Assembly (NCBI GenBank): GCA_021845665.1
Contig: JAJZVO010000005.1
Span: 17,422 to 81,421, forward strand
DNA length: 64,000 nucleotides
Reading direction: 5' to 3'
DNA from: Bacteroidota bacterium
GTDB taxonomy: Bacteria > Bacteroidota > Ignavibacteria > Kryptoniales > JAKASW01
In this document: positions 8,798-45,379 of the stretch, piece by piece
Layout of the letters: every line of letters begins with the position of its first letter
Position numbering within the stretch: position 1 is the first letter of the stretch
Position numbers and translations under genes: made by a program
Notes under the pieces: generated by a model
Databases searched by the model: none
The model's input: only the letters and a program-made list of their open reading frames with translations
What the model was told of the DNA's origin: nothing

Positions 8798-11700
8798 TTA
8801 TTTGATTAACATCATTTTGTCCATGTGGACGTAACTCCCAGCGACCATCCTGACGAAATAGACGCCGCTAGCGTAGCTGTCCATATTGAACGATAACCGG
8901 TACACTCCGGCAGATTCTTTGGCGTTGACCAAAGTTGCGACTTCCTGACCGAGAACGTTGTAGACCTTCACCGTTACGTTCACCGCCTTCGGCAACTGGT
9001 ATTCGATAGTCGTCGACGGGTTGAACGGATTCGGATAGTTCTGCAGCAGGGCGAATGTCCTCGGAATGTTCGAGGACGGGTTGCTGGCCACTGCGGTTAG
9101 TGTGGTATCCGAGCTAACCGGCGGAGCCAACTCCGCCTGCACATTCGTGATGTCCAGCCCGGTCGTCGCGTTTCCACCCTGCAGGCCGAAGATCAACGAA
9201 TTGAATGCGGTCGCTGAAAGCGGGCTGTGCGAATCCATGATCGAAGCTGTCCAAACGTAACTGCTGTCGGGTTTGTACAGAGTCGCGCCGACAAGCTGTG
9301 ATCCGTTCCCTTCCGGAGCCACGGATATTGCAAATACGTAATTGCCAGTGTCAATTACCGCGCCCATCGGGGACTGATGCACGGCGGCCATCACATAGCT
9401 TCCTTTTCCGTTCGTGCTTTCCCACGGCTGGCTGACGACGGCACCGGCGTTGCCTTGCTCGGAATTCGTTACCTGCCAAATCGGCGACTGGGCGTTGCCA
9501 CTCGGCGGGATAAACAAGTAGCCGTTGTCCATATCGTTTGCGCCTGTCCACTGATAACCGACGGTCTGTGTGGAGTCGAGGTTACCCATGCTCGTATTGT
9601 ATAGACCGAAACTAAAGGAATTCGCTGCTTGGATGGGGCCACCGACGACCGCCAGATCACCGGTGATGTACAGGGTCGAATCCTTACCGTTGCGTCCCGA
9701 GGTAGGCGTAACGAGCGCGCCGAGGACCGCTGCGTGCTGGAAGTTCGGAATCTTCGAAGCACCGGAGATTGTGGTGTTACCGATTATCGAGCCGGGGGTC
9801 AGAGTCCAGCCGCCGGTGTTCTTTCCATAAATGCCCCACTCGCTTATGTAGTAATTGGACCAAGGCTCCTCGGGGATGCTTATGTCCGGACCGAGACTGT
9901 CGACCACGTCGGAGAAGATCATTCCGGTCATCTTTGGACCGCCTTCGACGCCGAACTCGATGGAGTTCAACGTGTCCGACCTAGTCTGAGAGGTGGTGTC
10001 TGTAAGGGTGGCAGCGTCCCAGTAAACGATTTGACCTGACGAGTTCTTCTGGATCAGGTAGTAACTGACCAGTTTTGAGCCGTTGGCCTGCGGATGAACT
10101 GAGAAAGCGAAATCATAGGTGTTGGTTCCCGTGGGCATAGCGGCCCGTGCCGGTGCCTGCTGGACCACATACGGGCCGAAGCCGACTGCACCGCCGTAAC
10201 TGCTGAGCCAGTCTCCACCCATAACTATCCACTGCGCTGCACCAGAACCGCCGAACGAATATGAGGACGGGAGTTCATCCGTACCGGACTGAGGTGAGAA
10301 CGTGTAGCCATAAGAGGCTGTGCTCTGTCCTTTCCAGTACGCAGAGTCACCGCTCGCGCCAGTAAGGACACCGGGGGTCAGAGTGTTGTAAATTCCGTAC
10401 CGCATTCCGCTGGGAACATCGGGACCTTCGCCGACGAAGGTCACTTTACCGGAAACAACTATGGCTCCGCTGGGGGCAGTAGTGCCGACAAGGGGATGCT
10501 TGAAGGCTCCACGGATGCCTGCCCAGGCTTTAACGACACCGCCGTTGAAGTTGGCGGAATCGCCGTTGTCGGTCACATTAAGAATCCATCCCGGAGCGTT
10601 CCAACTCGGGTCGATACCCCACAATGTCAGTGGGCTTGCTGTTGAGGTGTTCTGGACGAGCTGGACATTCTGGGCGTACCAGATAGTCCTAAGACCTGAG
10701 GAAGAGCCGCTAGCGTTGATGCCGAAAGTAATATAAACCGTATCAGTCATGGAAAAGCTCCCGTTAATCGGGATGCTGATGTTTTCCCACCCGGTAGAAG
10801 CGGTTTGAGAGGAGCGATAATAGCTGCCGATGGTGTAGTTAGTGTCTGCACCATTGTCAAACGGACCAGATGGCATCGTACTGGTAGCCTTCACAAGGAA
10901 GGTCTTCTGGCTCACATCGCCTTGTGCCATAAATAGTTGGAAATTGAAACTGTTGTAGTCGGCCATTGTTTTCCCCGCAGGGAGGACAACCTCGAGAAAA
11001 GGAGCCGAATTATAGTTTCTGTTGATGAATTTGAGTATATGGTTGGTCGGCGCATTGTCCTTGTTAATGGTGTCCTGAACGACGACAGCCGCCGCGTTTC
11101 CAGAGCCCCAGCTCATTACATTTAGCGAATCTCCGAGGCTGTCAGCTTTGAAGTTCCAGAGTTCGTTATTTCCGCTTGCGATCGCCATTGGAGTTCCCAT
11201 CGCATAGCCATGGGCTGCCACATTGCCGACGTAGAGATACTTCGACGTGCTGGTAGTGCTGGTCGAGAGCCAGGGATACACTCTAACGTAAAGGGTATCG
11301 CCAGCATTCAGGACCGTGTCCAACGCGAAGCTTGTGTCCATCACTGCGTCCTGGGGAAGCGGGGATATCTCTCCGAGCATTGTGGAATCCGCGAAACTGC
11401 TCTTGCCGGAATAAAAGACGGCTGCATTCATCTTGTTTATTCCTTTTGCTCCTATCAGCATCGATATTGAATCCAGGTGCATGCTGAAACCCATCTGAGC
11501 TGTGACCATGAACTGCACATACTGGGCGGAATCCGGCCCGGTCAGATTGAACCATGTTCCGGTTCCCGACGTTGTGCTTGTTGCCGCATTGGGGAGCAGC
11601 TTCTGAATGGGCGACGTCGCCCCGGTGGGCAGGGGCGCCGATGTCCCTCCAGACTGATAGTCTGCGGTCAAGCCGGCTACGGCTTCCGTGTCTGCAGTTA

Positions 11701-31244: not shown

Positions 31245-32927
31245 ATGAAGAGCGTTTTGAATAAATACAGCTCGGAGTTGACGCAGAAGACATCGCAGCC
31301 TGCCTCTCGGGCGATGCTGTACGGCGTCGGCCTGAAGGACAACGACATGGTAAAGCCGCAAGTCGGCATCGCGAGCATGGGATGGGAGGGGAACACATGC
31401 AATATGCACCTTAACGATCTCGCGAAAGTCGTAAAGCAGGGAGTTCAGGAAGCCGGGATGGTAGGGCTGATTTTCAACACGATCGGTGTGAGCGACGGCA
31501 TTTCGATGGGAACGGAAGGAATGAAGTCCTCGCTTCCATCAAGAGAGATTATCGCGGACTCGATCGAGGCGGTGATGAGGGCACAGTGGTACGATGCGAA
31601 TATTTCGCTTCCGGGGTGCGACAAGAATATGCCGGGCTCCGTTATGGCGATGGGGAGATTGAACCGTCCGAGCCTGATGATCTACGGCGGTACAATAAGA
31701 GCAGGACACCTCGGTCAGCGAAAACTGGACATAGTTTCGGTCTTCGAATCTTATGGGGAGTTCATTGCCGGGAATATAAAGGAGTCCGAGATGAACGAAG
31801 TCGTGAAGCATGCGTGTCCCGGCCCCGGCGCTTGCGGAGGAATGTATACGGCAAACACGATGGCTACCGCCATCGAGACGTTGGGCATGTCTCTCCCTTA
31901 CAGCTCGTCGCTTCCCGCAGACAGCGAAGCGAAGAAGAAGGAGTGCCTCGCCGCAGGAAATGCCATCCTGGGCCTGCTTGAAAGAGACCTCAAGCCGCGC
32001 GACATCATGACGAAACAGTCTTTCATCAACGCAGTCACCATGGTGACCGCTCTTGGCGGCTCGACAAACGCCGTGCTCCATCTAATAGCCATCGCCAAGT
32101 CCGTCGGCGTCAGGCTGACCATCGGCGACTTCCAGAACGTCAGCAACCGCGTACCTTATATAGCGGAGCTCAAGCCGAGCGGCAAATTTGTGATGGAGGA
32201 CGTAAACGACATCGGCGGGATACCGGCGGTGCAGAAGATGCTCCTGAAGGAAGGTCTCCTCGACGGCAACTGCATGACCGTGACGGGAAGGACGCTCGGA
32301 GAGAATATCGAGAAAGTTGCGGACCTCAAGGCCGGGCAGAAGATCGTTCACCCGCTCTCCGACCCGATCAAGAAGACAGGTCACCTGCAAATTTTGTATG
32401 GTAACCTGGCTAAAGAGGGCGCGGTTGCAAAGATTACGGGCAAGGAAGGACTGCGCTTTTCCGGGCCCGCAAAGGCGTTCGATTCGGAAGAGGACACTTT
32501 GAAGGCGCTCGAAGAGAAGAAAGTCGCACCGGGGGATGTGGTAGTGATCAGGTATGAAGGACCAAAAGGCGGACCCGGAATGCGTGAGATGCTGACTATC
32601 ACATCCGCCATCATGGGCGCAGGGCTCGGGAAGAGCGTCGCTCTCATCACAGACGGCAGATTCTCCGGCGGCACTCACGGGTTCGTAGTAGGACACATAA
32701 CTCCCGAAGCCCAGAACGGTGGAGTGCTCGCCGTTGTCCGGGATGGAGACAGGATAACAATCGACGCCGAGAAGAACACGATAGTTCTCGAAGTCCCCGA
32801 CGCCGAAATAGAGCGGCGTCTGAAAGCATGGCGCGAACCTCCATACAGATTCAAGAGCGGGATGCTTTATAAGTATATCAAGAACGTTTCCTCCGCTTCT
32901 GAAGGCTGCGTGACGGACGAAGGCTGA
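31245..32927 (+). CDS. ilvD: Dihydroxy-acid dehydratase
   Basis: 560 aa. Motifs [57 protein letters not shown] and [12 protein letters not shown]. Confidence 0.95.
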
Positions 32928-32986
32928 GCTCAGATGAAGATTCGAGCGCTCAGCAGAAGGCCATGGCGGCGTTGAAGGTGACCTTC

Positions 32987-33682
32987 AACTGAGACCACGC
33001 GCCCGCGTGGGGCGCGACTTCTTGACGGCGCCTTTTTCGACTTGCATTTGCTGTTTCAATCCACGCGCCCGCGTGGGGCGCGACCTGCAAGGGCCACAAG
33101 GCAAGCGACAAGTGTGCTGATGTTTCAATCCACGCGCCCGCGTGGGGCGCGACCTCATTACTGATTCTCCGTTTCGTTTTGAGTTACGTTTCAATCCACG
33201 CGCCCGCGTGGGGCGCGACAACGGCGGCTGGTTCATGACGAGCAAGGACGCGGGTTTCAATCCACGCGCCCGCGTGGGGCGCGACTGCAATATTATCCGA
33301 TACTCCCGATGGTTTCGTGTTTCAATCCACGCGCCCGCGTGGGGCGCGACACCGTCAACGGAACGGCCGTGAGTTCGTTTGCGGGGTTTCAATCCACGCG
33401 CCCGCGTGGGGCGCGACATATACAAACCCCGTGTTTAAACTGACAGAGTGATCGTTTCAATCCACGCGCCCGCGTGGGGCGCGACTCGGATGCTGTAAGT
33501 ATGCCGCCGCTTGTAACCTGTTTCAATCCACGCGCCCGCGTGGGGCGCGACCGCTTCGCAGGGTAACTTAACATGGAACCAAGCGTTTCAATCCACGCGC
33601 CCGCGTGGGGCGCGACACTGTTTCATTACATAGCCTCCGACATTTTGTATGTTTCAATCCACGCGCCCGCGTGGGGCGCGAC
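32987..33682 (-). CRISPR. Type I-C CRISPR array, 11 repeats and 10 spacers, transcribed on the minus strand
   Basis: The 32-nt repeat GTTTCAATCCACGCGCCCGCGTGGGGCGCGAC (plus strand) starts at 32987, 33053, 33122, 33188, 33254, 33319, 33386, 33454, 33520, 33585 and 33651. Spacers are 33-37 nt and all unique. The reverse complement GTCGCGCCCCACGCGGGCGCGTGGATTGAAAC is the classical I-C repeat with an ATTGAAAC 3' end. The 32987 copy has 8 degenerate nt and marks the trailer end, distal to cas2. Confidence 0.97.
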
Positions 33683-33852
33683 TGCCCTCCTAAAAGGGCT
33701 TCTAATTATACTACATCTGCATATTTCTTGCCTCGCGGCGCTTAACACAGACTTGTCAAAGGACTTCATGATGGAAAGAACGAAAAGATACCCTTCTAAT
33801 CCAATTTGCGACTGCTAACCTCACGAGGTTTTCATGTGAGCTTCGGTCAGCA
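33683..33852 (-). promoter_or_regulatory. CRISPR leader (between cas2 stop and first repeat) with a TATAAT -10 element
   Basis: This 170-nt, AT-richer segment carries TATAAT on the minus strand (complement of 33705-33710), 22 nt upstream of the first repeat. A TTGACA (complement of 33754-33759) is 43 nt away, too far to be its -35. Confidence 0.5.
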
Positions 33853-34143
33853 TCAGAAAATCAACGGCTCTTCTATGTCCGCTATGCCTGCCTTCCCGTG
33901 ATGCTCGACCCTCCGTTTCCAGTTCGATCCGAGGAAATAAAACCTCAGGCTGTCGTTCTCTTCATCGTACAACGACAGGAGCCTGTCTTTCAACATCTCC
34001 CACCCGGCAGGGTCTACGTTGCACTCGAATACCGAATACTGGACGCGCAATCCGTAGTCCAGACATGCCTCCGATATCTTCCGAAGCCGTCTGGTTCCGG
34101 CTCCGGTCTTTGTGGAAACGTCGTAACTTACCAGTACCATCAT
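33853..34143 (-). CDS. cas2: CRISPR-associated endoribonuclease Cas2
   Basis: Start at the MM pair (34143). MMVLVSYDVSTKTGAGTRRLRKISEACLDYGLRVQYSVFEC shows the typical Cas2 ferredoxin fold start. Confidence 0.9.
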   Translation of the reverse strand: MMVLVSYDVSTKTGAGTRRLRKISEACLDYGLRVQYSVFECNVDPAGWEMLKDRLLSLYDEENDSLRFYFLGSNWKRRVEHHGKAGIADIEEPLIF

Positions 34144-34153
34144 ATCGTTTGTC

Positions 34154-35176
34154 CTATTTGATGTAAAAAGGCGGATACTCCGCAATGTCTCCGCGGACGT
34201 ATCTCGCCAGCAATTGCGCCTGTATGTGCGGCAGAAGCCCCACCGTCATTTTCTCTCCGAGGAAAGGATGTGTTGTTTCCTCCTGCTTTCGCTTCTGGTA
34301 CGCTTCCAATACCGTCTTCCTCGCCTCGTCCGACATCCTCACCTCTCCGGATTCCCTGACGTCGAAATCTTTCTTAGTCACCTGTTTGAGGTTAATCAAA
34401 TTCAACATGACTCGATCGCCCAGATATGCCCGGAACTCCTCCATTATGTCGAGAGCAAGACTGGGTCTGCCGGATCTCAAACCGTGAAGGAATCCTACCT
34501 GCGGATCCAGCCCTGTGGTCTCGATGGCCGATCTTACGTCGTTCGCAAGGATTGCATACAGAAACGAGAGGATCGCGTTCGCCGGATCGAGAGGCGGACG
34601 CTTCGATCTTGCCGTGAATTCGAAGTCTTTGTTCCCTATCAGCGATGACAGGACGCCAAAATACATCGCTGCACATTCACCTTCGATGCCCCGCAGTTGG
34701 TCGAGCGTCTCTGCCTTTTGTATGTCCGGCAGACGCTCCCCCATGGTGGCGGCAACCCCTTCGATCGAATCGGAGTATTCCTCCGGGTGATTCCTCTGGT
34801 GTCGAAGCAGCAGGTTGCGGTAGTTCGCCACCTTTGCGGCAATGATCGGCCTCGCAATGGCAAGCGACTGAAGCTCGCTGTCGGACATTACATACTGCGC
34901 CTTGCGAAGCAGAACGTTTCCCTTTTGAGCGCCCGATACTCTCGCCAGGAACCTGCCGTTCGCGGACAGGTAGCTGATGCCGACGTTGTTCTCTGCACAA
35001 AACGACATGATCGCTGGAGACAGCGCCTTGAAGCCGAAACAGACGATGTTCTCGATGGAATGCACCGGCGCCTGAAATACCTTTTTGTTTTCTACTTCTA
35101 CCACGAACGTCTCACGCTCCTTATGAACGTAAGCGTCGTCTGAAGTGATGTAAAGCGTGTTAAGATGTCTTTTCAT
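34154..35176 (-). CDS. cas1: CRISPR-associated integrase Cas1 (I-C type)
   Basis: Start ATG 35176 after GGAGG. Motifs MKRHLNTLYITSDDAYVHKERETFVV.., LRGIEGECAAMYF, DPANAILSFLYAIL and GFLHGLRSGRPSLALDIMEEFR. Confidence 0.95.
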   Translation of the reverse strand: MKRHLNTLYITSDDAYVHKERETFVVEVENKKVFQAPVHSIENIVCFGFKALSPAIMSFCAENNVGISYLSANGRFLARVSGAQKGNVLLRKAQYVMSDSELQSLAIARPIIAAKVANYRNLLLRHQRNHPEEYSDSIEGVAATMGERLPDIQKAETLDQLRGIEGECAAMYFGVLSSLIGNKDFEFTARSKRPPLDPANAILSFLYAILANDVRSAIETTGLDPQVGFLHGLRSGRPSLALDIMEEFRAYLGDRVMLNLINLKQVTKKDFDVRESGEVRMSDEARKTVLEAYQKRKQEETTHPFLGEKMTVGLLPHIQAQLLARYVRGDIAEYPPFYIK

Positions 35177-35256
35177 GATCCTCCGATGAAGGTTACCTTC
35201 CACTGGGCCCAGCCAACGGAGAAGGTAACATTCTCCCCCGCTGCTAAGTCTTGTGC

Positions 35257-35889
35257 CTAGCCTCCACTCTGCAAATAGAGCTCCTTGAGATACCTCTTTA
35301 GTTTTCTATCGCTCATCGCTTTCGGCAGGCAGATGCCCTCCAGCGAGCAATTCCTGCACTTTGCTGAATACTCCGCCGCCGGAGTCCGCTTGTTCGTTAT
35401 CAGCTCCCTGACGCGCGCGACGATCTCTTCTGTTTGTCTTCGAAGCTCCGAGTCAATTTCCACTTTCACGCGCCGGCGAATTTTTGCATAGAAGAATTCT
35501 CCTCGTGCTACAGTGGTATTCAACATTTCTTCCAGACAGAGCGCCTGGGCGCAGAGCTGTACCTTGTCGCTGATATCGTCCTTTGGCTGACCGGCTTTGA
35601 ACTCGACCGGTACGACAGACATTTCTGTCTGTCGTCTAACAAACTCCACCACATCGCATCTGCCCGAGATTCCGAGCCTAAACGAATGAATCTTCAGGCC
35701 ACGGACTGTCTTTACCGTCCCGCGCGACTCATACGTATCCGTGTCCACTTTCTCGTGAAGGATGTCGCCGCGAACAGTGAAGACATTCTCCCTCCATGCG
35801 TCCTCGACGTGTATGAGCGCGCACTGCCTCGGACAGTAGACGTAATGCTGCAGAGCGCTTAACTGAAAGAAGTCGTCTTCAGTAAACAT
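35257..35889 (-). CDS. cas4: CRISPR-associated exonuclease Cas4 (RecB-like, Fe-S)
   Basis: 210 aa. Motifs LQHYVYCPRQCALIHVE, DVVE..VPVEFK (PD-D/ExK) and the C-terminal cysteines CRNCSLEGIC. Confidence 0.9.
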   Translation of the reverse strand: MFTEDDFFQLSALQHYVYCPRQCALIHVEDAWRENVFTVRGDILHEKVDTDTYESRGTVKTVRGLKIHSFRLGISGRCDVVEFVRRQTEMSVVPVEFKAGQPKDDISDKVQLCAQALCLEEMLNTTVARGEFFYAKIRRRVKVEIDSELRRQTEEIVARVRELITNKRTPAAEYSAKCRNCSLEGICLPKAMSDRKLKRYLKELYLQSGG

Positions 35890-35897
35890 AAAATCTC

Positions 35898-35957
35898 AGT
35901 GCGACAAACATTCTTGTTTGTCGGGGACATTCAAGAATGAATGTCCGACAACTATTC
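35898..35957. repeat. REP-like repeat copy A (two hairpins) downstream of the RAYT gene
   Basis: Sequence AGTGCGACAAACATTCTTGTTTGTCGGGGACATTCAAGAATGAATGTCCGACAACTATTC. Stems are CGACAAAC/GTTTGTCG (35902-35923) and GGACATTC/GAATGTCC (35925-35946). The repeat overlaps the RAYT stop codon. Confidence 0.7.
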
Positions 35958-36404
35958 TTCATCATTCAAATACCAGCCGACATACTTCTCCGGTTCTTCT
36001 GTCAGTCCTTTCTTTACCGGATTATTGTACATATAGTTCAACTCATTCTTGAACTCGACGTCATTACGGACTATTCGATCATACGACTCGTCCTGCCAAA
36101 TCTGTCCATTAGTCCCTCTGTGCAGATTGATCTTATGTGCCGACACGCCCTTGAGGCCGTGCATAACGCGGTTGAGAGTCATTCGTAGATTCGGCTGAAT
36201 GAGAAGATGCACGTGATCCGGCATTACGATGGCGGCATAGCAATGATAGAATGTCCCATTTCCTTCTTTGATATGCTTCAGAACGATCCCCTGCTCTTCT
36301 TCGTTGAACACTATTCCCCACGTAGCACGGAACGTAACGAAATAGACAGCCCCTTCCAATGTCCAGTGCGGCAGATGCCGCCGTGTGATTTTCAACTCAG
36401 TCAT
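35952..36404 (-). CDS. REP-associated tyrosine transposase (RAYT; IS200-like Y1/HUH family)
   Basis: The likely start is ATG 36404, giving 150 aa. Motifs are ITRRHLPHWTLEGAVYFVTFR, the HUH motif VMPDHVHLLIQP, the catalytic Tyr motif IWQDESYDRIVRN and the C-terminal YMYNNPVKKGL. The track ORF's extra 24 aa overlap repeat copy B. Confidence 0.8.
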   Translation of the reverse strand: MTELKITRRHLPHWTLEGAVYFVTFRATWGIVFNEEEQGIVLKHIKEGNGTFYHCYAAIVMPDHVHLLIQPNLRMTLNRVMHGLKGVSAHKINLHRGTNGQIWQDESYDRIVRNDVEFKNELNYMYNNPVKKGLTEEPEKYVGWYLNDEE

Positions 36405-36432
36405 AAATTTCAAATGTGTGACATATATTCTT

Positions 36433-36532
36433 AGTGCGACAGACATTTGTGTCTGTCGAAAGGGACACTCCGACAATCATTCAATGCAACAAACGCTCAC
36501 ATGCGTTGTTCGACAGACATTTTTGCCTGTCA
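36433..36532. repeat. REP-like repeat copy B plus a partial third copy and an extra hairpin, upstream of the RAYT gene
   Basis: Sequence AGTGCGACAGACATTTGTGTCTGTCGAAAGGGACACTCCGACAATCATTC (36433-36482) has the same orientation as copy A, with stem CGACAGAC/GTCTGTCG. A bulged hairpin lies at 36486-36511. A partial copy CGACAGACATTTTTGCCTGTCA lies at 36511-36532. Confidence 0.7.
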
Positions 36533-36589
36533 TAGAATCGCTATGTGGGACAGTCCATCAATTGCCAAATCCATTATCAGCGATGACTA

Positions 36590-37447
36590 TCATTGAACCG
36601 GGACAGTTTTGAAGGTTTCCGAATAAGGCTGCCCATCCAGCAGTATCTCATAATCCGAAAAGTCTCTCGCTGGGCCTTCCGTCGTCCGCTTATATGTTAC
36701 GCGCGCGAAGAGCTCATGAGCCGGTTTGTTACCGAGAGCAGTTTTGTGTTCGAAGACAACCAGCTTCCTCGTGCTCATCAGTCCGCGGGCAGCAGAATGA
36801 TCATGCTCAAACATCTCCTGCATTGCCTTCCAGAATAGGTCAAGGTCATCCTGGGAAAATCCGGTCTGTTCCGCCAGGTGTGCAGACACGAACCCGTGTG
36901 CACGATACAGACCATAAGGAATTGTGTATTTGCGGCCCATTGTCCTATTATCGCCACTTTGTTTTTCGGCTTCGGCCTCGGTTGCAACCGCCATTCGTGT
37001 AATACTATGTTCCAGTGCGACGACTGGTTCAACAGAGCGGGCAAACGTCAGCTGAATGGGGCCGCGAACCTGACCGGCGTTCCTGCCAGTACTCATTACG
37101 GCTCCAAATGTTCTGACATCATAATAGTTCTTGCACATCCATTGTCTTGCAGCTTCAGTTTTCTCCCCTTTTTCTTTCTCTGCGACCTTCTCATCATCAT
37201 GGGCTTCGTCAATGAGCTTGTTGAGCACCGCTTTCTCTTTGATGAAAATATCGTAGGGACGTTTGCCGCCATTAGTCAATAAAACATAATTCCTCACCTT
37301 TCTTTTCAGACAGACATCTGTCACCAAACCCATTCCCGTTTCAGCATCAACACGAGGAAGATTGCCGGCATCAGGGTCACCGTTCGGGTTGCCATCTTTT
37401 ACATCAAAGAAGAAGACAAAGTCATAGCGTTTAGTAACCGAAGACAT
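36590..37447 (-). CDS. cas7: Cascade backbone subunit Cas7 (Csd2, I-C)
   Basis: 285 aa. The sequence [49 protein letters not shown] is the Csd2 signature. Confidence 0.92.
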
Positions 37448-37468
37448 ATAATACTCCTTTCCAGTTAA

Positions 37469-39211
37469 TCAAGACTGTTTGTTGTCATTAGTAGTTTTCT
37501 TGCTCGTAAAGAAATCCTGCCGTTGATGGTAGTACCCCACAGAAAAGTTTGCTTGATCGTTCAAGGTGAGATTAGCAGGCAGTGCGGATATTTCAGACAT
37601 GACTTCCCCAATCAATTTCTCGAAGTTCACTTTTCTGCCGGGATTTTCGATCTTCGCTAAATGATGATTCTTTAACTTTAGCAATTGAGAGAATACGGCA
37701 ACGGGACTAGTCGATGCTGCACCGTAAAAACGGTCCCGTATTGTCGCGTTGATTCCCGGGTTCGCCTCCTCTTGGATTTTCTCCAGAACCGCAAAAAGAC
37801 GTCCCAAGCGGTAGCCCGTGTTTGTGTTTGTTGGATCGAGTGCCACAGTGATCTCCTTTTCAAATGATTTGTGAACACGTTTTAAACGATTAATGGCAGC
37901 CTTCAGGATTGCCGCACGTGCGCGGGTGACGTTCCGCTCCGCTCTAATTCTCCTCATACACTGTTGGAGAAGAGTTGACGGATATGGCGTCCCATCAAGA
38001 ATGCTCTCGACAACACCGCCAGCCAGGTTTGGTGGAACATTCTGCATTTTGTACTCCAATGCTGTCGATGTAAGGATCCGGAAGAGCGAGAGATATTCCG
38101 GGTCTTTGGGCCCTCGCACAATTTCGAAGTCGTCAAAGTGCCTCTTTATGTTTTCGCCAACCTCTCGTACGGTCCCCTGTCGAAAAAACCTAACCGATAT
38201 ACGTGCTGCATTCGGAGCAAGACCGAGGACGTAAAAGCGGTCACCGCTCTGTGAAAGGCGCCCGGTATTAACTGACTCATACAGACTCCTGACCGCCTGC
38301 ACACCACGGTCTGGATCGTCTTTCTGGTCCGCTATGTACCACGCGAAGTCCTTTTCCAGATCGTATGATCCTTTATCGTCTTTTCGTTTTTCACCCCAAA
38401 AAGCTATCGTTGCATCGCCTACGGAAACCTTGTTGCGAGAATCCTTCCCGAGCAAAAGATTCAAAGCTGTCGTGTAGGCAAATGTTGCCCTCTCGCTTAT
38501 TGGGGAATTGAAACTTTGTGTTTTGCCAAATGAATTGAATGCGGGAAGATTGAACGACACAAGCGAACCCCCTTGCGTGTTTGTTCCCCGAACCCCTTTT
38601 ATAGAGGGATGAAGTCGTGCGACCTCGACATTCTTCTCCCCTGTGACCAGGCAAATTCCAATTACCGAATCCCCGGATGAAGGTCCAGGTATTTCATGCT
38701 GGAGATCGTCGCAGATTGTGCTATGCTTCTCTCCATCAAGCTTGAATGTAACGAACGGATTTTCTTCCAAGATTCGATTCCATAGATCTGAATAACCGGA
38801 CCCCTCAATCTGCTTGACAGGATCCTTTGAGAGAAACTGCAGTAACGCATTGACAGAGGGGACTTCTTTTCCTTCTACATCGTTCCCTATTCTTTCTATG
38901 AACGCCTTGTGTCGCTGGGAGACATCTTTTCTTTTCCTTGGATTGGCTCCGAGCGCATATTCGATATTATCCCAGAGTAAGTTTGCCTTGATTCCCGACG
39001 CTCGCTTAGCAGATTGAGGGACAAGGAATGGCCTCGCTCGTTTCACCTTTCCTTCCCCCTCTCTCGTATCGTTGATCGCAACGAAACGACCCTCCTTATT
39101 AATGACAATCAAATAGGGTATCTCTTTCCATTCCCATCCTTCAGGAGCGACCGTGCTTTCCGGGTCGGCCGCTTTTCGTTCGTAGTAGTCGTATAACGCC
39201 TGCAAAATCAT
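37469..39211 (-). CDS. cas8c: Cascade large subunit Cas8c (Csd1, I-C)
   Basis: 580 aa. The N-terminus MILQALYDYYERK..EGWEWKEIPYLIVINKEGRFV is typical of Csd1. The gene overlaps the cas5 stop by 4 nt. Confidence 0.9.
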   Translation of the reverse strand: MILQALYDYYERKAADPESTVAPEGWEWKEIPYLIVINKEGRFVAINDTREGEGKVKRARPFLVPQSAKRASGIKANLLWDNIEYALGANPRKRKDVSQRHKAFIERIGNDVEGKEVPSVNALLQFLSKDPVKQIEGSGYSDLWNRILEENPFVTFKLDGEKHSTICDDLQHEIPGPSSGDSVIGICLVTGEKNVEVARLHPSIKGVRGTNTQGGSLVSFNLPAFNSFGKTQSFNSPISERATFAYTTALNLLLGKDSRNKVSVGDATIAFWGEKRKDDKGSYDLEKDFAWYIADQKDDPDRGVQAVRSLYESVNTGRLSQSGDRFYVLGLAPNAARISVRFFRQGTVREVGENIKRHFDDFEIVRGPKDPEYLSLFRILTSTALEYKMQNVPPNLAGGVVESILDGTPYPSTLLQQCMRRIRAERNVTRARAAILKAAINRLKRVHKSFEKEITVALDPTNTNTGYRLGRLFAVLEKIQEEANPGINATIRDRFYGAASTSPVAVFSQLLKLKNHHLAKIENPGRKVNFEKLIGEVMSEISALPANLTLNDQANFSVGYYHQRQDFFTSKKTTNDNKQS

Positions 39212-39969
39212 CGCCGCACCTCCTCACTGTCACGCACCGGAATGCTCACGGCACCATTCTTCATCTCTGCACGAAAGAACATCGGTTGAGGATTTTCCAG
39301 ATCAGTGAAATCCATATCGTACAGCATAAACCCAAGATCGCGCGTTTCGGAAATCGCTTCCTGCTCCACCTCATGATTCTCAACGAGGCGAAAACTGCAG
39401 CTGAATTCCCGCGTACCGAGATAGGGCTGATTGAAGCACTGCCCCTTTTTTCCTCTCCGCTCGAACATTGCCAGATATTTCCCGGGTGTTTCATCATTTG
39501 TTGTGCTGCCGCTCTTTGTTTCCCAGTCTTTGATCTCCTCTTGCATGAATTGCTTCTCCTCGGGATCCCAAAGGAATTCCGGTACAACAGTATGCCTGTT
39601 ATTCTTTCTCTGATCGACCGGGATATATTCGATCACAGCGTAGAAACGGTATCTAACGTCACGCAGGAACAAACCCGCACGCTGCTGCCGATTATCCTCG
39701 ATCAAAAGCCCCTCGCTTCGGTCGCTCATGACCGCACCAACTTCATTGCGCCGTACCGAAATCCACTTTATCGGATTGAGAACTTCTATCCGAGTGGGCT
39801 GCCACCGGACAGCCGGTTTCCAGAAAATGGCTTCGAACACTGCGCGCACAGCCGATGGTGTGGGAACATCGTAGCTGACGCGTTCCACCTTCATTTCCGG
39901 TCGGGTGAAGCATGCGTAGTCCCCCCATACCTCAAGGCAAAAAGGTTTGTGGTCATACCTTTGATTCAT
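39208..39969 (-). CDS. cas5: Cas5 (Cas5d/Cas5c, pre-crRNA-processing subunit of I-C)
   Basis: 253 aa. Sequence FCLEVWGDYACFTRPEMKVERVSYDVPTPSAVRAVFEAIFWKP..RQQRAGLFLRDVRY. Confidence 0.92.
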   Translation of the reverse strand: MNQRYDHKPFCLEVWGDYACFTRPEMKVERVSYDVPTPSAVRAVFEAIFWKPAVRWQPTRIEVLNPIKWISVRRNEVGAVMSDRSEGLLIEDNRQQRAGLFLRDVRYRFYAVIEYIPVDQRKNNRHTVVPEFLWDPEEKQFMQEEIKDWETKSGSTTNDETPGKYLAMFERRGKKGQCFNQPYLGTREFSCSFRLVENHEVEQEAISETRDLGFMLYDMDFTDLENPQPMFFRAEMKNGAVSIPVRDSEEVRR

Positions 39970-39996
39970 AGTCGTTCCTCCAATATTTTTCGATCC

Positions 39997-42318
39997 TTAA
40001 ACAACTCCGGAACCATATACCCAATCACTTTCATTACCGAGAAGGCCCAAACCTGGTCTGTACAGGCTCTCATCCTTTTGTACCCAGTATCCATTGACTT
40101 CTTCTATGTAATTATTCTTTTGAATCCGATCGAACATCTGCACCGGGACATTCACGAGAAATCTCTGCAATCTGCGGATCCTGTCCCTTGACGGCCCCTT
40201 ATACCGCAGCTCGTCAGTCAATTCCCGGCTGTCAATCCCCGTCCTTTCGTTCTTATACCAGACGATTATGCTTCTCTGCGCCGCGTCATCAATCATGTGA
40301 AAATCCTGAGCGAGGGTTCGGAATTGAAAGCTGAAATCACCCGCGTCTCTGACCATCCGCTCGTGGAACATCGGCTTGTCAAATCCATTGAGACTTGTGA
40401 AGAGATGTTGAAAGTATTCGGTAAAAAGGGTCGGAGTTAACTCAAGTGCGGATTTGGTTCGCAGGATCATCCTGCAGGCATCTTCACCTTTCCGCAACAT
40501 TCCGGTGGGCGTCGCCTTTGGAGGATTAAACACAATGACCTTCCCGAGCTTTCCTTTCTCAGCCAATCTATTCTCCCGGTTACAGCGACCAGCCGCCTGC
40601 GCTATCGAATCGAGCCCGGCAAGCGCGCGATACACGACCGGGAAATCAATATCGACTCCGGCCTCAACGATCTGCGTGCTGATAACACGTATCGGGTCGC
40701 CATCTCTGAGTCTTGCCTTGATTTCCGATATGACTTGACTTCGTTCTTCCCCGCACATAAACGCCGAAAGATGGACCGTCCCTTCCGGCATGATGGCATG
40801 AAGTGTCCTGCAGTCGGAGCGAGTATTCACGATGCAAAGGACCTGTTTATGCTTTCGGAGTTCAGCAGCAACGTCGCCCCATTCCGACCGAATATTCAAA
40901 TCGGGTGGGGTTATCTCAACCCGCCGGAAATCAATTGCGAGGGATTCAGGATCATCTACGATGTGCTTAATATCCAAAATGCCTTCGAAGGCATTCGGTG
41001 CAGATCCGATGCGCCCCTCCAAAGCAGGTTGTGTCGCAGTCATAAGAACAACCGTAACACCGAAGTGTTTTACCAATCCTCGCAGTACTGAAACGATTGG
41101 CTTCAAGTACTCGGGCGGCAGCATCTGTGCTTCATCAAGGATGATGATACTGTTGACCAAGTTGTGGAGCTTCCTGCAAGACGATGTTCGACTCGCAAAC
41201 AGAGATTCAAAAAGCTGAACGTTAGTCGTGACAATAACAGGCGCATCCCAGTTTTCAGAGGCAAGCCGGCTTCTGCTATCTTCTTTATCGGGATCAAGAT
41301 TACTGTGGTGTTCGACAACCTGGTCTTCGCCGAAAAGAAATCGCCCGGTGTTTCTTCTCTCTTCAATCTCTTCGTTGTCGTCAGTCCCGTACTTAAAAAC
41401 CTTCGCGGTCTGCTCAATAATGCTCGTGTACGGGATTGCCATAATGATCCGTCTCTTTTCCTTTCCCGGTTGCAGTGCGTGTTCGAGTGCAAACGCCATG
41501 GAAGAAAGTGTCTTGCCGCCGCCGGTGGGTACATTGAGAGTAAAGAATCCCGGTGAGAGCTTTGCCTTCAGCCTGCATTGCTCAAGAATCCCGTTTCGCT
41601 TCTTGTTAATCTCGGTATCCGATTTTTTCTCCCCCATGAACTTGTCAAACCGGTTCTTCAATTGAGAAAGCGACAGGTACTTTCCTCTTTCTTCATGCTG
41701 TTCCGGATTCATGAATTCTTCAGTATCAAGAAAGTCAGCGTCGACGAGACAGGAGAAAAGCATTCGCACCCACAGGTGCATATGCTCTTTGCTCCTTGTG
41801 GCCGCCGGTGCAGATTCGGGGAATGTCTTTTCAAGGAATTGTCTTGCTTCCGGTATCCTTCGGATCCCATCGAGTTCTTCTTTATCGAGGACCGCTTCCA
41901 GGGGATTCCTATAAATCCTGTTCTGAAGGTCTCCACCCGCACCGTCAGGATGCCAATCCGGAAGCCCGGCGTGATGTCCCGCGATTCCATAGGCAACTAG
42001 TTTCGCTACGGGACGGCTCTTGAGATTATCAAAAGCTAATACTGCACCTGAAGTGCTGTGATTTGGCCTGGCGTTTCGCCCCTCAATGCAGGCCTCGGAA
42101 TCATACCCCGTCTCTCGGCGGATATATTTCTGCCAGGCAGGAAGAAATTTCCCAAGGTCATGCCAGTATCCCAGCAATTCACCCCAATCACGGTTGCCGA
42201 ATTCGGAAGCAAATTTGCCCGATAATTTTGCGGTTCCGTTCAAATGATCTTCCAGCGATTGGGTGACCCAAACGCCGTCCGGTTCTTGTCTTGCGTGCGC
42301 AATGAATTCGCCCTTCAT
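39997..42318 (-). CDS. cas3: Cas3 HD-nuclease/SF2 helicase fusion
   Basis: 773 aa. HD domain (YWHDLGK..NHSTSGA..IAGHHAGLPDW) followed by helicase motifs VPTGGGKT, IILDEAQ, MTATQP and AGRCNR. Confidence 0.95.
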   Translation of the reverse strand: MKGEFIAHARQEPDGVWVTQSLEDHLNGTAKLSGKFASEFGNRDWGELLGYWHDLGKFLPAWQKYIRRETGYDSEACIEGRNARPNHSTSGAVLAFDNLKSRPVAKLVAYGIAGHHAGLPDWHPDGAGGDLQNRIYRNPLEAVLDKEELDGIRRIPEARQFLEKTFPESAPAATRSKEHMHLWVRMLFSCLVDADFLDTEEFMNPEQHEERGKYLSLSQLKNRFDKFMGEKKSDTEINKKRNGILEQCRLKAKLSPGFFTLNVPTGGGKTLSSMAFALEHALQPGKEKRRIIMAIPYTSIIEQTAKVFKYGTDDNEEIEERRNTGRFLFGEDQVVEHHSNLDPDKEDSRSRLASENWDAPVIVTTNVQLFESLFASRTSSCRKLHNLVNSIIILDEAQMLPPEYLKPIVSVLRGLVKHFGVTVVLMTATQPALEGRIGSAPNAFEGILDIKHIVDDPESLAIDFRRVEITPPDLNIRSEWGDVAAELRKHKQVLCIVNTRSDCRTLHAIMPEGTVHLSAFMCGEERSQVISEIKARLRDGDPIRVISTQIVEAGVDIDFPVVYRALAGLDSIAQAAGRCNRENRLAEKGKLGKVIVFNPPKATPTGMLRKGEDACRMILRTKSALELTPTLFTEYFQHLFTSLNGFDKPMFHERMVRDAGDFSFQFRTLAQDFHMIDDAAQRSIIVWYKNERTGIDSRELTDELRYKGPSRDRIRRLQRFLVNVPVQMFDRIQKNNYIEEVNGYWVQKDESLYRPGLGLLGNESDWVYGSGVV

Positions 42319-42492: not shown

Positions 42493-43569
42493 CTATCGCC
42501 TTCCCCCTCCGCCCTGGTTCATCATAAAATCCAGCATCTCGTTCTTCATCTCTTCAACCGCGTCGAGCCGACCACGGCTGCGGAGTGCAATGCCGAGTAC
42601 ATTACCGAGCGGGGCAAGGGCATCGACATATTCACCTTTCCTCACTGAAATGGACTCCGGCTTCAGTCCCGACTTTCCTACGGCTGAACATACAACGTCG
42701 GCGAGCAACTGATGTTGAGCCGTCTCGGGGGGTGCCGTCTCCATGTCGAACACGAATCCCGATTGCCTCTGGCACACCACTGCCGTCCGGACATAGTAGG
42801 GCCGTTCGCGATCCATGATAGGCATGGGCATGAAAAACACATCCGCCTCCCACCCAGTGTCGGGTTTCAACTTCTTCCGTTTAATTGCATCGATAGCGGC
42901 AAGATTCAAAATCGGGGGGAGCGGCCGTTTTCTTTCATACACAGGGAGAGGCTCCCACCCGGAAGTGAACTCTCCAGGTGCCTCCTCCGCCGCTGTGTAA
43001 ACGAGGCATTCGTTTTCCCGGAATGACTCGACCACTTCCCTTCTTATCAGCCGCTCAAAGTGCAGGCAGGCTGCATTGATGCCGAGCGTAAGAAATCGCG
43101 CCTCGTCCTCCGTCAGGAACCACGGGGCGTATCCGGGCAGCATGCTCCTGAACTGAGGCCAGGCATTCTTTCCTCTGAACGTGAGGCCTAGCTCTTTCAA
43201 TATGGCGAGGTCCTCCGGGGTCATGTCCTTCCGCGGGCCAAACTCAAGCAGTAGGCAGTTCTGCATGGCGAAGAGGTCGTCAGCCTCCGGTTCAACTTCT
43301 CCCTCAATCGTCCGGCGGTATACATCGAAACCTTCGTCGCCGCGGTACAAGCAGAAACCGAAGACCGACCCGCCGCTCCCCATCACTACACCGCATCCGG
43401 TTTCCCGGCTCCTCGGATCGCGGGCACAGACGAGGTCGATATCGTCGAGGACATTCCAGGGTTGAAGGATATTGAATTTCTCTGCTGCCAGATATAGATC
43501 TTTCCAGACGTTGGTCGGGACTTTCGGCGCTTTTTGTCTCATCTCTCCCTGCTTTCGTTCATCTTCCAT
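42493..43569 (-). CDS. Hypothetical cytoplasmic protein, no family recognised; co-oriented with cas3 and immediately upstream of it
   Basis: The ORF is open from 43626, with candidate starts at ATG 43569 (MEDERKQ) or 43542 (MRQKAPK). No TM segment or signal peptide. No catalytic motif could be assigned by eye. Confidence 0.6.
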   Translation of the reverse strand: MEDERKQGEMRQKAPKVPTNVWKDLYLAAEKFNILQPWNVLDDIDLVCARDPRSRETGCGVVMGSGGSVFGFCLYRGDEGFDVYRRTIEGEVEPEADDLFAMQNCLLLEFGPRKDMTPEDLAILKELGLTFRGKNAWPQFRSMLPGYAPWFLTEDEARFLTLGINAACLHFERLIRREVVESFRENECLVYTAAEEAPGEFTSGWEPLPVYERKRPLPPILNLAAIDAIKRKKLKPDTGWEADVFFMPMPIMDRERPYYVRTAVVCQRQSGFVFDMETAPPETAQHQLLADVVCSAVGKSGLKPESISVRKGEYVDALAPLGNVLGIALRSRGRLDAVEEMKNEMLDFMMNQGGGGRR

Positions 43570-43802
43570 GGGTAGCGACAACTCTCCACGATAATTACCC
43601 CTCACCGCCGCAACACCTGAGATCATCAGTTATTCATTCTCGCAATGTAATTATCCGTGCAACAATTCCTGGTGAAATATACGCGGTGCTTCCTGCCAAG
43701 TCAAAAGGAGGGCGTGCGCCCGCTGTGTTTACGGAACGGCAGTGAACCTTTACTCAAACCATGCAGCTTTATTATATTGCTTTCAAAGTCAGAGGCGCAA
43801 TC

Positions 43803-44255
43803 ATGGAACTCAGTCAACTCCTTCACGGGCATATGGACGAGATCCTCTCGGAGGCAGAGAGCTCTCTTTCGCGGTCTCATCTTGCCCACTATCAGAAAGA
43901 GGGATCGGAACATAACCGGCAGAAATTGAAGGCGCTTTACGTTCTCGCTGTCAGGGCGATCGCGGAGAAAAATCTCGGGCCGATGCTTTCATACTCGGAG
44001 ACCATCGCTAGGGAACGATACGAGACAGGTTTCGATCTTTCGGAAGTCCAGACCGCGTTCAACGTGCTCGAAGAAGCGGCGTGGAGATTCGTCGTGAAAA
44101 ACCTGCCGCCGGTCGAATACGGCGAAGCTATAGGAATGGTCAGCACGGTCCTCGGAGCAGGCAAGGATATGCTCGCCAGGACGTACGTCATGCTCGCGAG
44201 CAAGTCAAGGGCACCGTCTTTCGACCTCCGCTCCATGTTCGCTGGTACGTACTGA
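43803..44255 (+). CDS. Small all-helical hypothetical protein (possibly RsbR-N/globin-sensor-like; weak call)
   Basis: Start ATG 43803 after AGAGG, 150 aa. The helical heptad-like sequence (MELSQLLHGHMDEILSEAE..AFNVLEEAAWRFV) gives only a vague resemblance to RsbRD N-terminal domains. Confidence 0.45.
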   Translation: MELSQLLHGHMDEILSEAESSLSRSHLAHYQKEGSEHNRQKLKALYVLAVRAIAEKNLGPMLSYSETIARERYETGFDLSEVQTAFNVLEEAAWRFVVKNLPPVEYGEAIGMVSTVLGAGKDMLARTYVMLASKSRAPSFDLRSMFAGTY

Positions 44256-44421
44256 CCGGTTCCGGGACGGCTGTCGGAACATCGTGCTCACTCTTCCGGC
44301 GCTGACGAGGGCAAATCCGTGGCCGTTTGGCACAATGGAATTCTCTATCCTGCCGGATAAACTCTCGGGGCGTCTTTTGTGTTAGGTAACGAGACACCCT
44401 AACCATCGAAAGACGAACAAT

Positions 44422-45379
44422 ATGGCAGCCGATAAACAGCGGTTGGCAATTCTCGGAAGCGGTTTCGCATCCCTGAGTCTTGTCAAAAGGATCGACCTCT
44501 CTCTGTACAAGATCGCAATCGTGAGTCCGCGCAATCACTTTCTGTTCACGCCTCTCCTTCCCAGCACTACTGTCGGGACGATCGAATTCCGAAGCATAAT
44601 CGAACCGATAAGATCCTCCAGGAACGAGATAAGATACTACCAGGCGGAATGCATTTCTGTAGATCCGGAGAAGAGCGTTGCGAAATGCGAGACGGTACAG
44701 AGCAAGGAGGTTTTCGACCTCGAGTACGACCATCTTGTCGTCGCGGTCGGAGCAGTAAACAACACATTCGGGATACCGGGAGTTGAAAAGCACGCATTGT
44801 TTCTCAAGGAGCTTCACGATGCCCGGAAGATAAATCGACATCAGGACCAACTCCCCTGTGAAGGAAGTCCAGGAAAGAACCATACTGCTCCACGACGGCA
44901 CGACTATCCCGCACGGTCTTGTCGTGTGGTCGACGGGGATCGGGCCCACGAAACTTCTTCAGTCGCTTCCATTTCCGAAGAACCGCGTTTCCCGTCTCCT
45001 CACGGACGAGTTCCTCAGAGTCCCCGGCACAAAGAACATCTACGCTGCCGGAGATTGCGCGACGTCCGAAGACGAGAATTATCCGGCCACCGCACAGGTC
45101 GCCCAGCAGGAAGGGAAATATCTCTCCTACTCTTTCAACCACATCGCTCGCGGAAAAACGCCGGAGCCGTTTCGCTACAAGAACCTGGGTATGCTCGCGT
45201 ACATCGGAGACAGACGCGCTCTTGCGGACCTCCCGAATGTCAAAGGGAGAGGTTTTGCCACTTTCTTATTCTGGAGATCGGCCTACCTCACTCGGCTCGT
45301 GAGCATGAAGAACAAGATTCTCGTGCTCTTCGACTGGATCAAAGCTTCGATCTTCGGAAGGGATATAAGCAGCTTCTGA
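44422..45379 (+). pseudogene. Type II NADH dehydrogenase (NDH-2, Ndi1-like) with internal deletion and frame change
   Basis: The N-terminal FAD Rossmann fold (LAILGSGFASLSL..RNHFLFTPLLPS..LVVAVGAVNNTFGIPGVEKHALFLKELHDARKI) is in the frame of 44422. After about 44830 the protein continues only in another frame (IDIRTNSPVKEV..LVVWSTGIGP..AAGDCA..TAQVAQQEGKYL..GMLAYIGDRRA..FLFWRSAYL, ending at 45379). The second dinucleotide-binding motif (GGGPTGVE region, about 100 aa) is missing. Confidence 0.7.

Follow-up and report, generated by a model that had tools for sequence, protein, structure and literature searches.

A REP-associated transposase and its hairpins in the adaptation module of type I-C CRISPR-Cas operons

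Is a transposase gene that sits inside an otherwise canonical CRISPR-Cas (short palindromic repeats, clustered and regularly interspaced, with their associated genes) operon a part of the immune system or a lodger in it? The question is raised by a 64,000-nt stretch of a Bacteroidota bacterium of the order Kryptoniales (contig JAJZVO010000005.1, positions 17,422 to 81,421), referred to here in its full length as the window. It contains a complete type I-C operon on the minus strand (33853-42318), in which every cas gene scores far above the cutoff of its subtype-specific hidden Markov model (HMM). The gene order is cas3, cas5c, cas8c, cas7, an extra open reading frame (ORF), cas4, cas1c and cas2, followed by the leader and the array. 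The extra ORF encodes a transposase of the RAYT class, the tyrosine transposases associated with repetitive extragenic palindromes (REPs), and it is accompanied by hairpins of the kind on which such enzymes act. It is argued below that the unit is, on balance, probably a persistent REP/RAYT element (a 'REPtron') that resides in the I-C adaptation module, where it would be tolerated, active on hairpins in cis and occasionally exchanged.

The transposase and its hairpins

The ORF is co-oriented with the cas genes and occupies the 700-nt interval between cas7 and cas4. Coordinates and operon content agree that the unit lies exactly at the junction of the effector and adaptation modules, where a first-pass annotation of the sequence had put it. 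The features of this interval, with the hairpins given without strand, are:

35952-36404, minus strand: RAYT coding sequence, 150 aa, identified by NF047646, Pfam Y1_Tnp and the sequence and fold of 4ER8
36511-36532: degenerate upstream hairpin B', TGACAGGCA-aaaa-TGTCTGTCG, with one G.T mismatch, about 57 nt past the cas7 stop
36460-36482: remnant of an inverted upstream hairpin A, TTGTCGGA/GTGTCCC, from direct reading of the sequence
36437-36458: upstream hairpin B, coding strand CGACAGACA-caaa-TGTCTGTCG, with the 5' tag GTGC on the plus strand at 36434-36437
35925-35946: downstream inverted hairpin A, GGACATTCA-ttct-TGAATGTCC, z = -5.5 when folded as single-stranded DNA (ssDNA)
35902-35923: downstream hairpin B, CGACAAACA-agaa-TGTTTGTCG, ending 12 nt ahead of the cas4 ATG
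35613-35634: hairpin within the cas4 coding sequence, in frame, coding for RQTEMSV and identical to the copy at 36437 in 21/22 positions

With 84.3 bits the protein exceeds the cutoff of 80 for the NCBIfam model NF047646 (REP_Tyr_transpos), and with 37.3 bits that of 23 for Pfam Y1_Tnp; it fails the IS200 equivalog NF033573 (27.1 bits, cutoff 55). Its sole sequence match in the PDB is 4ER8, the TnpA_REP of Escherichia coli. The same structure heads the Foldseek ranking of its AlphaFold2 model (mean confidence, pLDDT, 90; 4er8_A, E 1.8e-8, TM 0.67), ahead of the TnpA proteins of ISDra2, IS200 and IS608. The HUH motif is H64-V-H66, and H64, H66, Y124 and N128 are invariant across 42 homologues and align to H59/H61, Y115 and N119 of 4ER8. 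In TnpA_REP, Y115 is the catalytic residue and N119 a metal ligand (PMC3479197). From this alignment the catalytic tyrosine of the RAYT is most likely Y124, within LNYMYNNP, and N128 would serve as metal ligand. The first-pass annotation was thus correct in reading the 150-aa ORF as an HUH/Y1 RAYT, as the family models, the match to 4ER8 and the conserved HUH and tyrosine residues attest, and mistaken in placing the catalytic tyrosine in IWQDESYDRIVRN, where the tyrosine is not invariant among the homologues. The ORF is a RAYT-class HUH/Y1 transposase with intact catalytic residues, a known kind of element. PADLOC has no family that matches it.

Two types of hairpin accompany the gene; in both the stem is 9 bp long (not 8 bp, as initially described) and the loop 4 nt. 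On the coding strand the sequence of type B is (C/T)GAC-NNN-CA agaa TG-NNN-GTCG; type A, GGACAYTCA ttct TGARTGTCC, is a similar hairpin in inverted orientation. Downstream of the RAYT the two are adjacent and form a REP/iREP doublet that resembles a bacterial interspersed mosaic element (BIME) or a REP doublet forming a hairpin (REPIN), with ssDNA folding z-scores of -5.5 to -6.3. Two same-orientation copies of about 50 nt had been described as bracketing the gene. Upstream, the B hairpin is intact, while A carries a 13-nt internal deletion relative to the intact copies in the related loci L012, L106 and MFD (L025+L019, CAWBQQ010000002.1). The third, partial copy that had been noted at 36511-36532 is the degenerate B' hairpin, and the perfect B hairpin within cas4 is an addition to that earlier description. 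The motif CGACARAC-N6-GTYTGTCG occurs three times in the 64 kb (35902, 36437, 35613) against an expectation of 0.01, with all copies inside about 900 nt.

When the hairpins are oriented by their loops, a conserved 3' tail S-N-A-C emerges, equivalent to a 5' tag GT-N-S on the other strand. The tag is exactly GTAG in L136, L138, L157 and L214-217, and GTGC, GTTC, GTAC or GTCG in the window copies. GTAG is the tag that characterises the GTAG REP superfamily and also the E. coli REPs (PMC3733652). Among 61 frames that fit the fixed positions only, 52 pair perfectly at all three inner positions that the motif leaves free, using 13 different triplets, where chance predicts 1/64. Covariation scores 0.352 in the hairpins and 0.082 in shuffles, none of 500 shuffles scores as high, and slid controls all collapse. 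The same hairpins lie beside RAYT homologues of 50-79% identity outside cas loci, in Chlorobiota (L131), Thermoguttaceae (L060), Caldithrix (L071) and L215/L217, and the motif is dispersed over many contigs in several metagenome-assembled genomes of other phyla, among the matches listed. On these comparative grounds the hairpins are the cognate REPs of the window RAYT family (tag GT-N-S/GTAG, 9-bp stem, RRAA loop), kept by compensatory change. The early description of the flanking repeats as the hairpins of the RAYT is therefore backed both by covariation and by co-occurrence across phyla.

Within I-C loci the hairpins have settled almost exclusively in cas operons: 516 kb of such loci contain 52 perfect copies, nearly all of them inside the operon. 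They occupy the cas7-RAYT, RAYT-cas4, cas4-cas1 and cas1-cas2 spacers, and lie in frame within cas4 in the window, MFD, L134 and L138. The site in cas4 is the variable loop between motifs II (DVVEF) and III (VPVEFK) of the PD-(D/E)XK nuclease, a 9-residue turn R-E-T-K-x-G-x-E-V in 48/80 relatives. In the window this loop is the hairpin-encoded VRRQTEMSV, and in MFD it is composed of B, a degenerate B and A, all in frame. Longer loops are found in L135, L137, L168/L205, L172, L179, L198, L211 and L012, with 12-32 extra residues (21-41 instead of the usual 9), and for most of the inserts checked the coding DNA is an unrelated palindromic sequence, for instance ATTCCGAA...TTCGGAAT and GCCCCGGCC...GGCCGGGG. 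Hairpins also occur inside cas1 in L012 (9694-9713) and MFD (reverse-complement 9413-9432), and the Cas1 alignments of these two loci exceed the window protein by 16-30 residues. As far as coding sequences reveal it, small palindromic elements in general use the motif II-III loop of Cas4 as a landing site.

In classical systems the RAYT keeps up a population of REPs or REPINs throughout the genome. For the present element, four metagenomes in which the host is present at 11-28x were searched over all their contigs for the 68-nt A+B doublet at 80% likeness. It matched the cas-locus contig and one related I-C variant contig only, so that a dispersed cognate population was not seen for the doublet in these metagenomes, a search that single 22-nt hairpins may escape. 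No hairpin copy lies in the roughly 63 kb of the window outside 35613-36532. A motif scan across database genomes, informative on genomes other than those of the window's species, included two species-representative genomes with a cas-embedded RAYT, in which the cas locus alone was matched, among the matches listed. The first-pass annotation had reserved the reading of a local duplication for a repeat confined to this locus. The repeat is indeed not dispersed in the host metagenomes, but the same hairpin flanks RAYT homologues across phyla, so a mere local duplication does not account for it.

Distribution, age and possible exchange of the cassette

The window species was found in mine-drainage and sediment metagenomes. 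An identical RAYT is present on 18 of its contigs, invariably in the order cas7-RAYT-cas4, with one RAYT contig in each of the four host metagenomes. Homologues of 81-93% identity occupy the same joint in six further, diverged loci (L011, L012, L013/14, L019+L025, L106 and L134). The adaptation genes of these loci remain close to those of the window (Cas4 75-84%, Cas1 79-82%, Cas2 60-81%), and most of the six have effector genes that are far apart from them (Cas7 27-54%, Cas8c 27-39%, Cas3 32-36%). By this comparison the RAYT travels with the cas4-cas1-cas2 module and lies at its recombining joint with the effector module. The shuffling does not call for a RAYT, since in relatives that have none the similarity drops equally between the adaptation and the effector genes.

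The effector genes of L011 (859-3800) form a mosaic relative to the window, in which Cas5 is 84% and Cas8c 39% identical. Its Cas7 is 91% identical at the C-terminus and 70% at the N-terminus, with an insertion of about 85 aa. Recombination has thus also taken place inside the effector module, besides the module joint.

A metagenome scan with Cas4 as query recovered 80 related loci, 17 of which have a co-oriented Y1-family gene beside cas4, while about 63 have none. The Y1 genes belong to at least six lineages. Besides the window type there are three other branches of its RAYT family (57-71% identity) at cas4|cas1, a pair that is more distant, an IS200-like family proper of 153 aa, and a Y1 family of 221-228 aa. 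At least two of the more distant Y1 families stand at cas7|cas4 or cas4|cas1. Five of the eight database members of the RAYT family with sampled context adjoin cas4 (P0001, P0004, P0005, P0015 and P0017, the last two at cas4|cas1), and P0006, P0048 and P0118 lie outside cas loci. Cas-embedded and free members interleave in a neighbour-joining tree, indicating that the genomic context has changed several times. Close Cas4 relatives (74-78%) that lack a RAYT also exist, and some joints are empty, at about 10-60 nt, a patchiness of the sort seen with mobile elements. In the comparison of I-C loci, which the first-pass annotation had proposed, the gene recurs at cas7|cas4 in seven lineages and is patchy among close relatives. 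As a candidate CRISPR accessory, a Y1 gene is enriched beside cas4 (17/80 loci, 5/8 members) yet patchy and polyphyletic, in a slot shared with unrelated cargo. The arrangement beside cas4 was not found in open-access papers and preprints on RAYT, IS200 or HUH proteins with CRISPR, Cas4 or type I-C.

The seven cas7|cas4 lineages, in which the protein is always 150 aa long, have nonsynonymous to synonymous ratios (dN/dS) of 0.09-0.15 at dS 0.3-1.1, a range that marks the RAYT, as judged from codon comparison, as a gene under strong purifying selection. In the same locus pairs, which are few and non-independent, pooled identity at 4-fold sites is 0.63 for the RAYT, 0.45 for Cas4 and 0.34 (near saturation) for Cas1, and RAYT and Cas4 differ with a Fisher p of 1e-9. 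Base composition was excluded as the cause of the higher RAYT value, chance level being 0.25-0.32 for all three genes. These differences hint that, once the modules had diverged, related I-C loci may have exchanged the cassette laterally or received it by re-insertion. Movement together with the 5' end of cas4 was considered and dismissed, as there is no gradient of synonymous identity along cas4.

The joints beside cas4 and the state of the operon

The first-pass annotation had taken the cas7|cas4 position to be normally vacant. That is true of canonical I-C operons and not of this clade, where the joint is empty in only 14 of the 55 relatives in which it is fully covered. A 282-aa Bro-N protein, matching the PADLOC candidate PDC-S13 (E 2.6e-125), occupies it in 28/55, a Y1 gene in 10/55 (6 of those alongside Bro-N) and other cargo in 9/55 (RhuM, DUF7309/DUF6930, DUF559). 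The cas4|cas1 joint, fully covered in 71 relatives, is empty in 55 and holds a Y1 gene in 7. HicAB and GIY-YIG genes are further occupants of the slots that flank cas4. From this gene content the cas7|cas4 joint is a general cargo hotspot for selfish and candidate defence genes.

Several occupants deserve description in their own right. The Bro-N protein (e.g. L187 3635-4483, L216 2462-3301) is the commonest cas7|cas4 occupant of the clade and is absent from the window; a literature search found no recurrent link of Bro-N/PDC-S13 to type I-C. Between RAYT and the intact cas4, MFD carries a second, decayed 5' end of cas4 and, in antisense orientation, a hicA/hicB-like toxin-antitoxin pair (reverse-complement 7605-8210), with a Pfam E-value of 1.9e-10 for HicA and a weak match for HicB. 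The cas7-cas4 spacer of L212 contains a lone CRISPR repeat, GTCGCGCCCCACGCGGGCGCGTGGATTGAAT (in 4791-5030), which, if transcribed, would place a Cas5c processing site in the cas mRNA. The spacers of L176, L178 and L193 (about 200-300 nt) are filled by arrays of other palindromes, GTCCC-N3-5-GGGAC and ATCCC-N4-GGGAT, and have no transposase gene. The DUF7309/DUF6930 protein is a recurrent I-C neighbour with no PADLOC match. In the window it is encoded directly upstream of cas3 (42493-43626, minus strand, 377 aa), as it is in L012 (1141-2202), and it stands between cas7 and cas4 in L149 (3208-4245) and L164 (3850-4887).

The remaining components of the window locus, in which all cas genes are full length, are:

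39997-42318, minus strand: cas3, strong type I-C HMM match
39208-39969, minus strand: cas5c, strong type I-C HMM match
37469-39211, minus strand: cas8c, strong type I-C HMM match
36590-37447, minus strand: cas7/csd2, 285 aa, TIGR02589, 400 bits
35257-35889, minus strand: cas4, 210 aa, TIGR00372, 139 bits
34154-35203, minus strand: cas1c, 349 aa as listed ORF, TIGR03640, 470 bits; the gene-caller start at 35176 gives 340 aa
33853-34185, minus strand: cas2, HMM match; gene callers give 33853-34143, 96 aa
32983-33684, minus strand: CRISPR array of 11 repeats, 10 good ones of GTCGCGCCCCACGCGGGCGCGTGGATTGAAAC and a degenerate terminal one

The leader lies between cas2 and the array. The array went undetected by Tandem Repeats Finder and was picked up by a separate repeat search, and a scan of 32800-36700 matched no Rfam family. 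Farther upstream, a gene for an NDH-2-type pyridine nucleotide-disulphide oxidoreductase (window about 44188-45379, equivalent to L002 1026-2217) is disrupted or replaced in a strain-polymorphic manner. It encodes 411 aa in some strains (cf. L004/L005/L007 748-1983), and in the strain type of the window it is a 173-aa fragment, after which the opposite strand encodes an unrelated ORF of 217 aa.

Does the insertion impair the operon? The first-pass annotation had proposed that the hairpins could attenuate transcription into cas4-cas1-cas2 and uncouple adaptation from interference. The hairpins have no T-tracts, however, and no intrinsic terminator was seen in a scan of the coding strand of the cas7-cas4 interval. 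A sigma-70 promoter scan of the same strand returned nothing convincing, and does not model promoters of the Bacteroidota type. The comparison of arrays between strains, also suggested at the outset, is informative. In L001, L004 and L006 against the window, L002 and L003, strains with a 100% identical RAYT and Cas proteins at least 97.5% identical (except an indel-bearing Cas5 in L001) have entirely different leader-proximal spacers. Different spacers in strains with an identical RAYT, together with the absence of a terminator, give no sign that adaptation has been uncoupled or shut down, and from its sequence the CRISPR system looks intact and apparently active.

The community metatranscriptomes X21-X23, which come from the same study, contain repeat-spacer-repeat contigs of about 96 nt with the exact window repeat and four spacers that are absent from the window. 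These RNAs are crRNA precursors of other strains or species that share the repeat (the first leader-side repeat of the window is at 33650-33684) and, like the spacer differences, speak against a silencing of adaptation.

A probable resident element and its alternatives

How could such a unit persist? The RAYT would be expressed by read-through of the cas operon and would bind and cleave its hairpins on ssDNA, by analogy with E. coli TnpA_REP. Cleavage may seed and maintain hairpin copies nearby, giving both local spread and compensatory turnover. The cassette could now and then be moved or exchanged between related I-C loci, as suggested by its lower synonymous divergence relative to its cas neighbours. 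Its persistence would follow if the slots on either side of cas4, which are transcribed and receive further selfish and defence cargo, are permissive. The RAYT would then ride on a horizontally shuffled adaptation module, and no role in spacer acquisition is needed.

Between the two options that had been put forward at first, a REPtron-type insertion fits best, and a recruited accessory gene has no direct support. According to the latter, the HUH enzyme would aid Cas4-Cas1-Cas2 by nicking or processing single-stranded or hairpin DNA, trimming prespacers or resolving integration intermediates, and the hairpins would be by-products or regulatory sites. The recurrence of co-oriented, polyphyletic Y1 enzymes on both flanks of cas4 speaks for such recruitment, as do the link of the RAYT to the adaptation rather than the effector module and a strong purifying selection that has no dispersed REPs to maintain. 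A dedicated nuclease would however hardly be missing from about 63 of the 80 close Cas4/Cas1 relatives, share its slots with unrelated selfish and defence genes, or have sister RAYTs with identical hairpins in housekeeping contexts. The lower synonymous divergence of the RAYT relative to its neighbours argues against simple co-evolution, and neither a PADLOC family nor a literature report was found. Recruitment is accordingly regarded as unlikely. The hairpins rather than the enzyme could have been exapted, as barriers to mRNA decay or as processing sites that keep effector proteins at a high ratio to adaptation proteins, with the RAYT kept for renewing them. REPs of E. coli do set protein ratios in some operons. 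The precise placement of the hairpins in the cas7|cas4, cas4|cas1 and cas1|cas2 spacers, their 40:12 orientation bias with respect to transcription and their covarying structure would suit that role, as would the unrelated palindromes and the solo CRISPR repeat (L212) in the cas7-cas4 spacer of RAYT-less relatives. Covariation is equally expected of ssDNA substrates of a RAYT, though, and copies within coding loops have no obvious function at an mRNA boundary. Many relatives make do with a hairpin-free spacer of about 10 nt, and no T-tract or terminator signature speaks in favour of exaptation, which is considered about as unlikely as recruitment and is compatible with it.

Two further explanations are effectively excluded. 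An ordinary autonomous insertion sequence (IS) of the IS200/IS605 type that recently hopped into the operon would account for the Y1 fold, for direct-orientation hairpins at both ends that recall left and right IS ends, and for a synonymous divergence below that of neighbouring genes, and true IS200-like genes of 153 aa do occur in the same slot elsewhere. It is nevertheless very improbable: the protein reaches 27 bits against the cutoff of 55 in the IS200 model while passing the RAYT model, there is one copy per metagenome, and fixation in 18/18 species contigs and at the same site in seven lineages (dS 0.4-1.1) shows that the residence is old. That a chance ORF and a local duplication only mimic a REP/RAYT unit would agree with the confinement of the repeat to one locus in the window and host metagenomes, and is contradicted by HMM, fold, covariation and the cross-phylum co-occurrence of hairpin and RAYT, which leave it practically no probability.

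The resident, tolerated REP/RAYT element remains the preferred account, and several observations weigh against it. The doublet is confined to the cas locus in the four host metagenomes, unlike in classical RAYT systems, and if there are no dispersed REPs, the selection that keeps the RAYT intact is left unexplained. The census of the host genome is itself incomplete, as single hairpins may be too short for the doublet search. Residence of 5/8 sampled family members beside cas4 exceeds what would easily be expected of a permissive slot, and may leave room for a functional or targeting link. The synonymous-site comparison rests on few, non-independent pairs, and the three metatranscriptomes X21-X23 gave no coverage of cas genes or RAYT. 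Taken as it stands, the RAYT has not the standing of a proven CRISPR component and is most likely a selfish resident that is tolerated; a role in adaptation, though conceivable, is not supported.

Among known systems, the closest are E. coli TnpA_REP (YafM) with its REP-BIMEs and the RAYT-REPIN systems of Pseudomonas, which share the HUH, tyrosine and asparagine site and include, in 4ER8, the best match in both sequence and fold. The likeness to these REPtrons extends to the size of about 150 aa, the apparent single copy, strong purifying selection and long residence, and to the short bracketing hairpins, perfect or imperfect, with their 5' tetranucleotide tag (GTAG in sister loci) and REP/iREP pairs. 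In contrast to them, the window RAYT has no dispersed REPs in its host by the doublet census, its hairpin copies are confined to the cas operon and extend into coding loops, and its tags are variants (GTGC, GTTC, GTAC, GTCG). Residue H123 of TnpA_REP is replaced by lysine, and the gene is housed in a CRISPR-Cas operon, recurrently beside cas4. With the TnpA proteins of IS200/IS605 elements (IS608, ISDra2, IS200) it has in common the Y1 HUH fold, direct-orientation subterminal hairpins on both sides and probably the ssDNA chemistry, and IS200-like genes proper fill the same slot in some relatives. It differs from them in failing the IS200 model, in not being multicopy, in having no tnpB and in being fixed at an orthologous site in diverged lineages.

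The in-frame hairpins in the motif II-III loop of Cas4, and those inside cas1, recall the Rickettsia palindromic elements and other intragenic REPs, palindromic units that are inserted in frame at surface loops and leave the ORF intact (Di Nocera et al., 2013, PMC3733652). Unlike those, the present copies lie in cas genes, a few hundred bases from the gene of an identifiable cognate transposase. As a nucleic-acid enzyme of mobile-element origin that adjoins cas1, cas2 and cas4, the RAYT may also be set beside Cas4 itself, RT-Cas1, DnaQ-Cas2 and the casposons. In distinction to adaptation accessory enzymes it is unfused, patchy and without strict co-occurrence. Casposons use Cas1 as their own integrase, whereas here a genuine CRISPR operon has the Y1 transposase as its passenger.

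RAYTs are single-copy, conserved, 'domesticated' transposases whose benefit to the host is a long-standing puzzle. The niche described here appears to be new in three respects: recurrent polyphyletic residence flanking cas4 in type I-C loci, hairpins in cas coding loops, and the apparent lack of a genome-wide REP family. The cas7|cas4 and cas4|cas1 joints of I-C systems are hotspots that gather selfish elements and candidate defence genes, and an operon of about 9 kb offers a compact system in which local effects of a RAYT on mRNA, on ssDNA at replication forks or on spacer acquisition could be followed. There is some slim chance that, throughout a widespread clade of I-C adaptation modules, the flanks of cas4 specifically attract Y1/HUH transposases or are places where these are selected for, either because they generate or trim prespacer ssDNA or hairpins with Cas4-Cas1-Cas2 or because they home onto structures made during adaptation. 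If the link were functional, an HUH nuclease would be added to the adaptation toolkit, in a partnership between transposase and CRISPR adaptation that has gone unrecognised. If it is not, the locus would provide a clean case of hitch-hiking, in which a horizontally shuffled immunity module carries a mobile element along.

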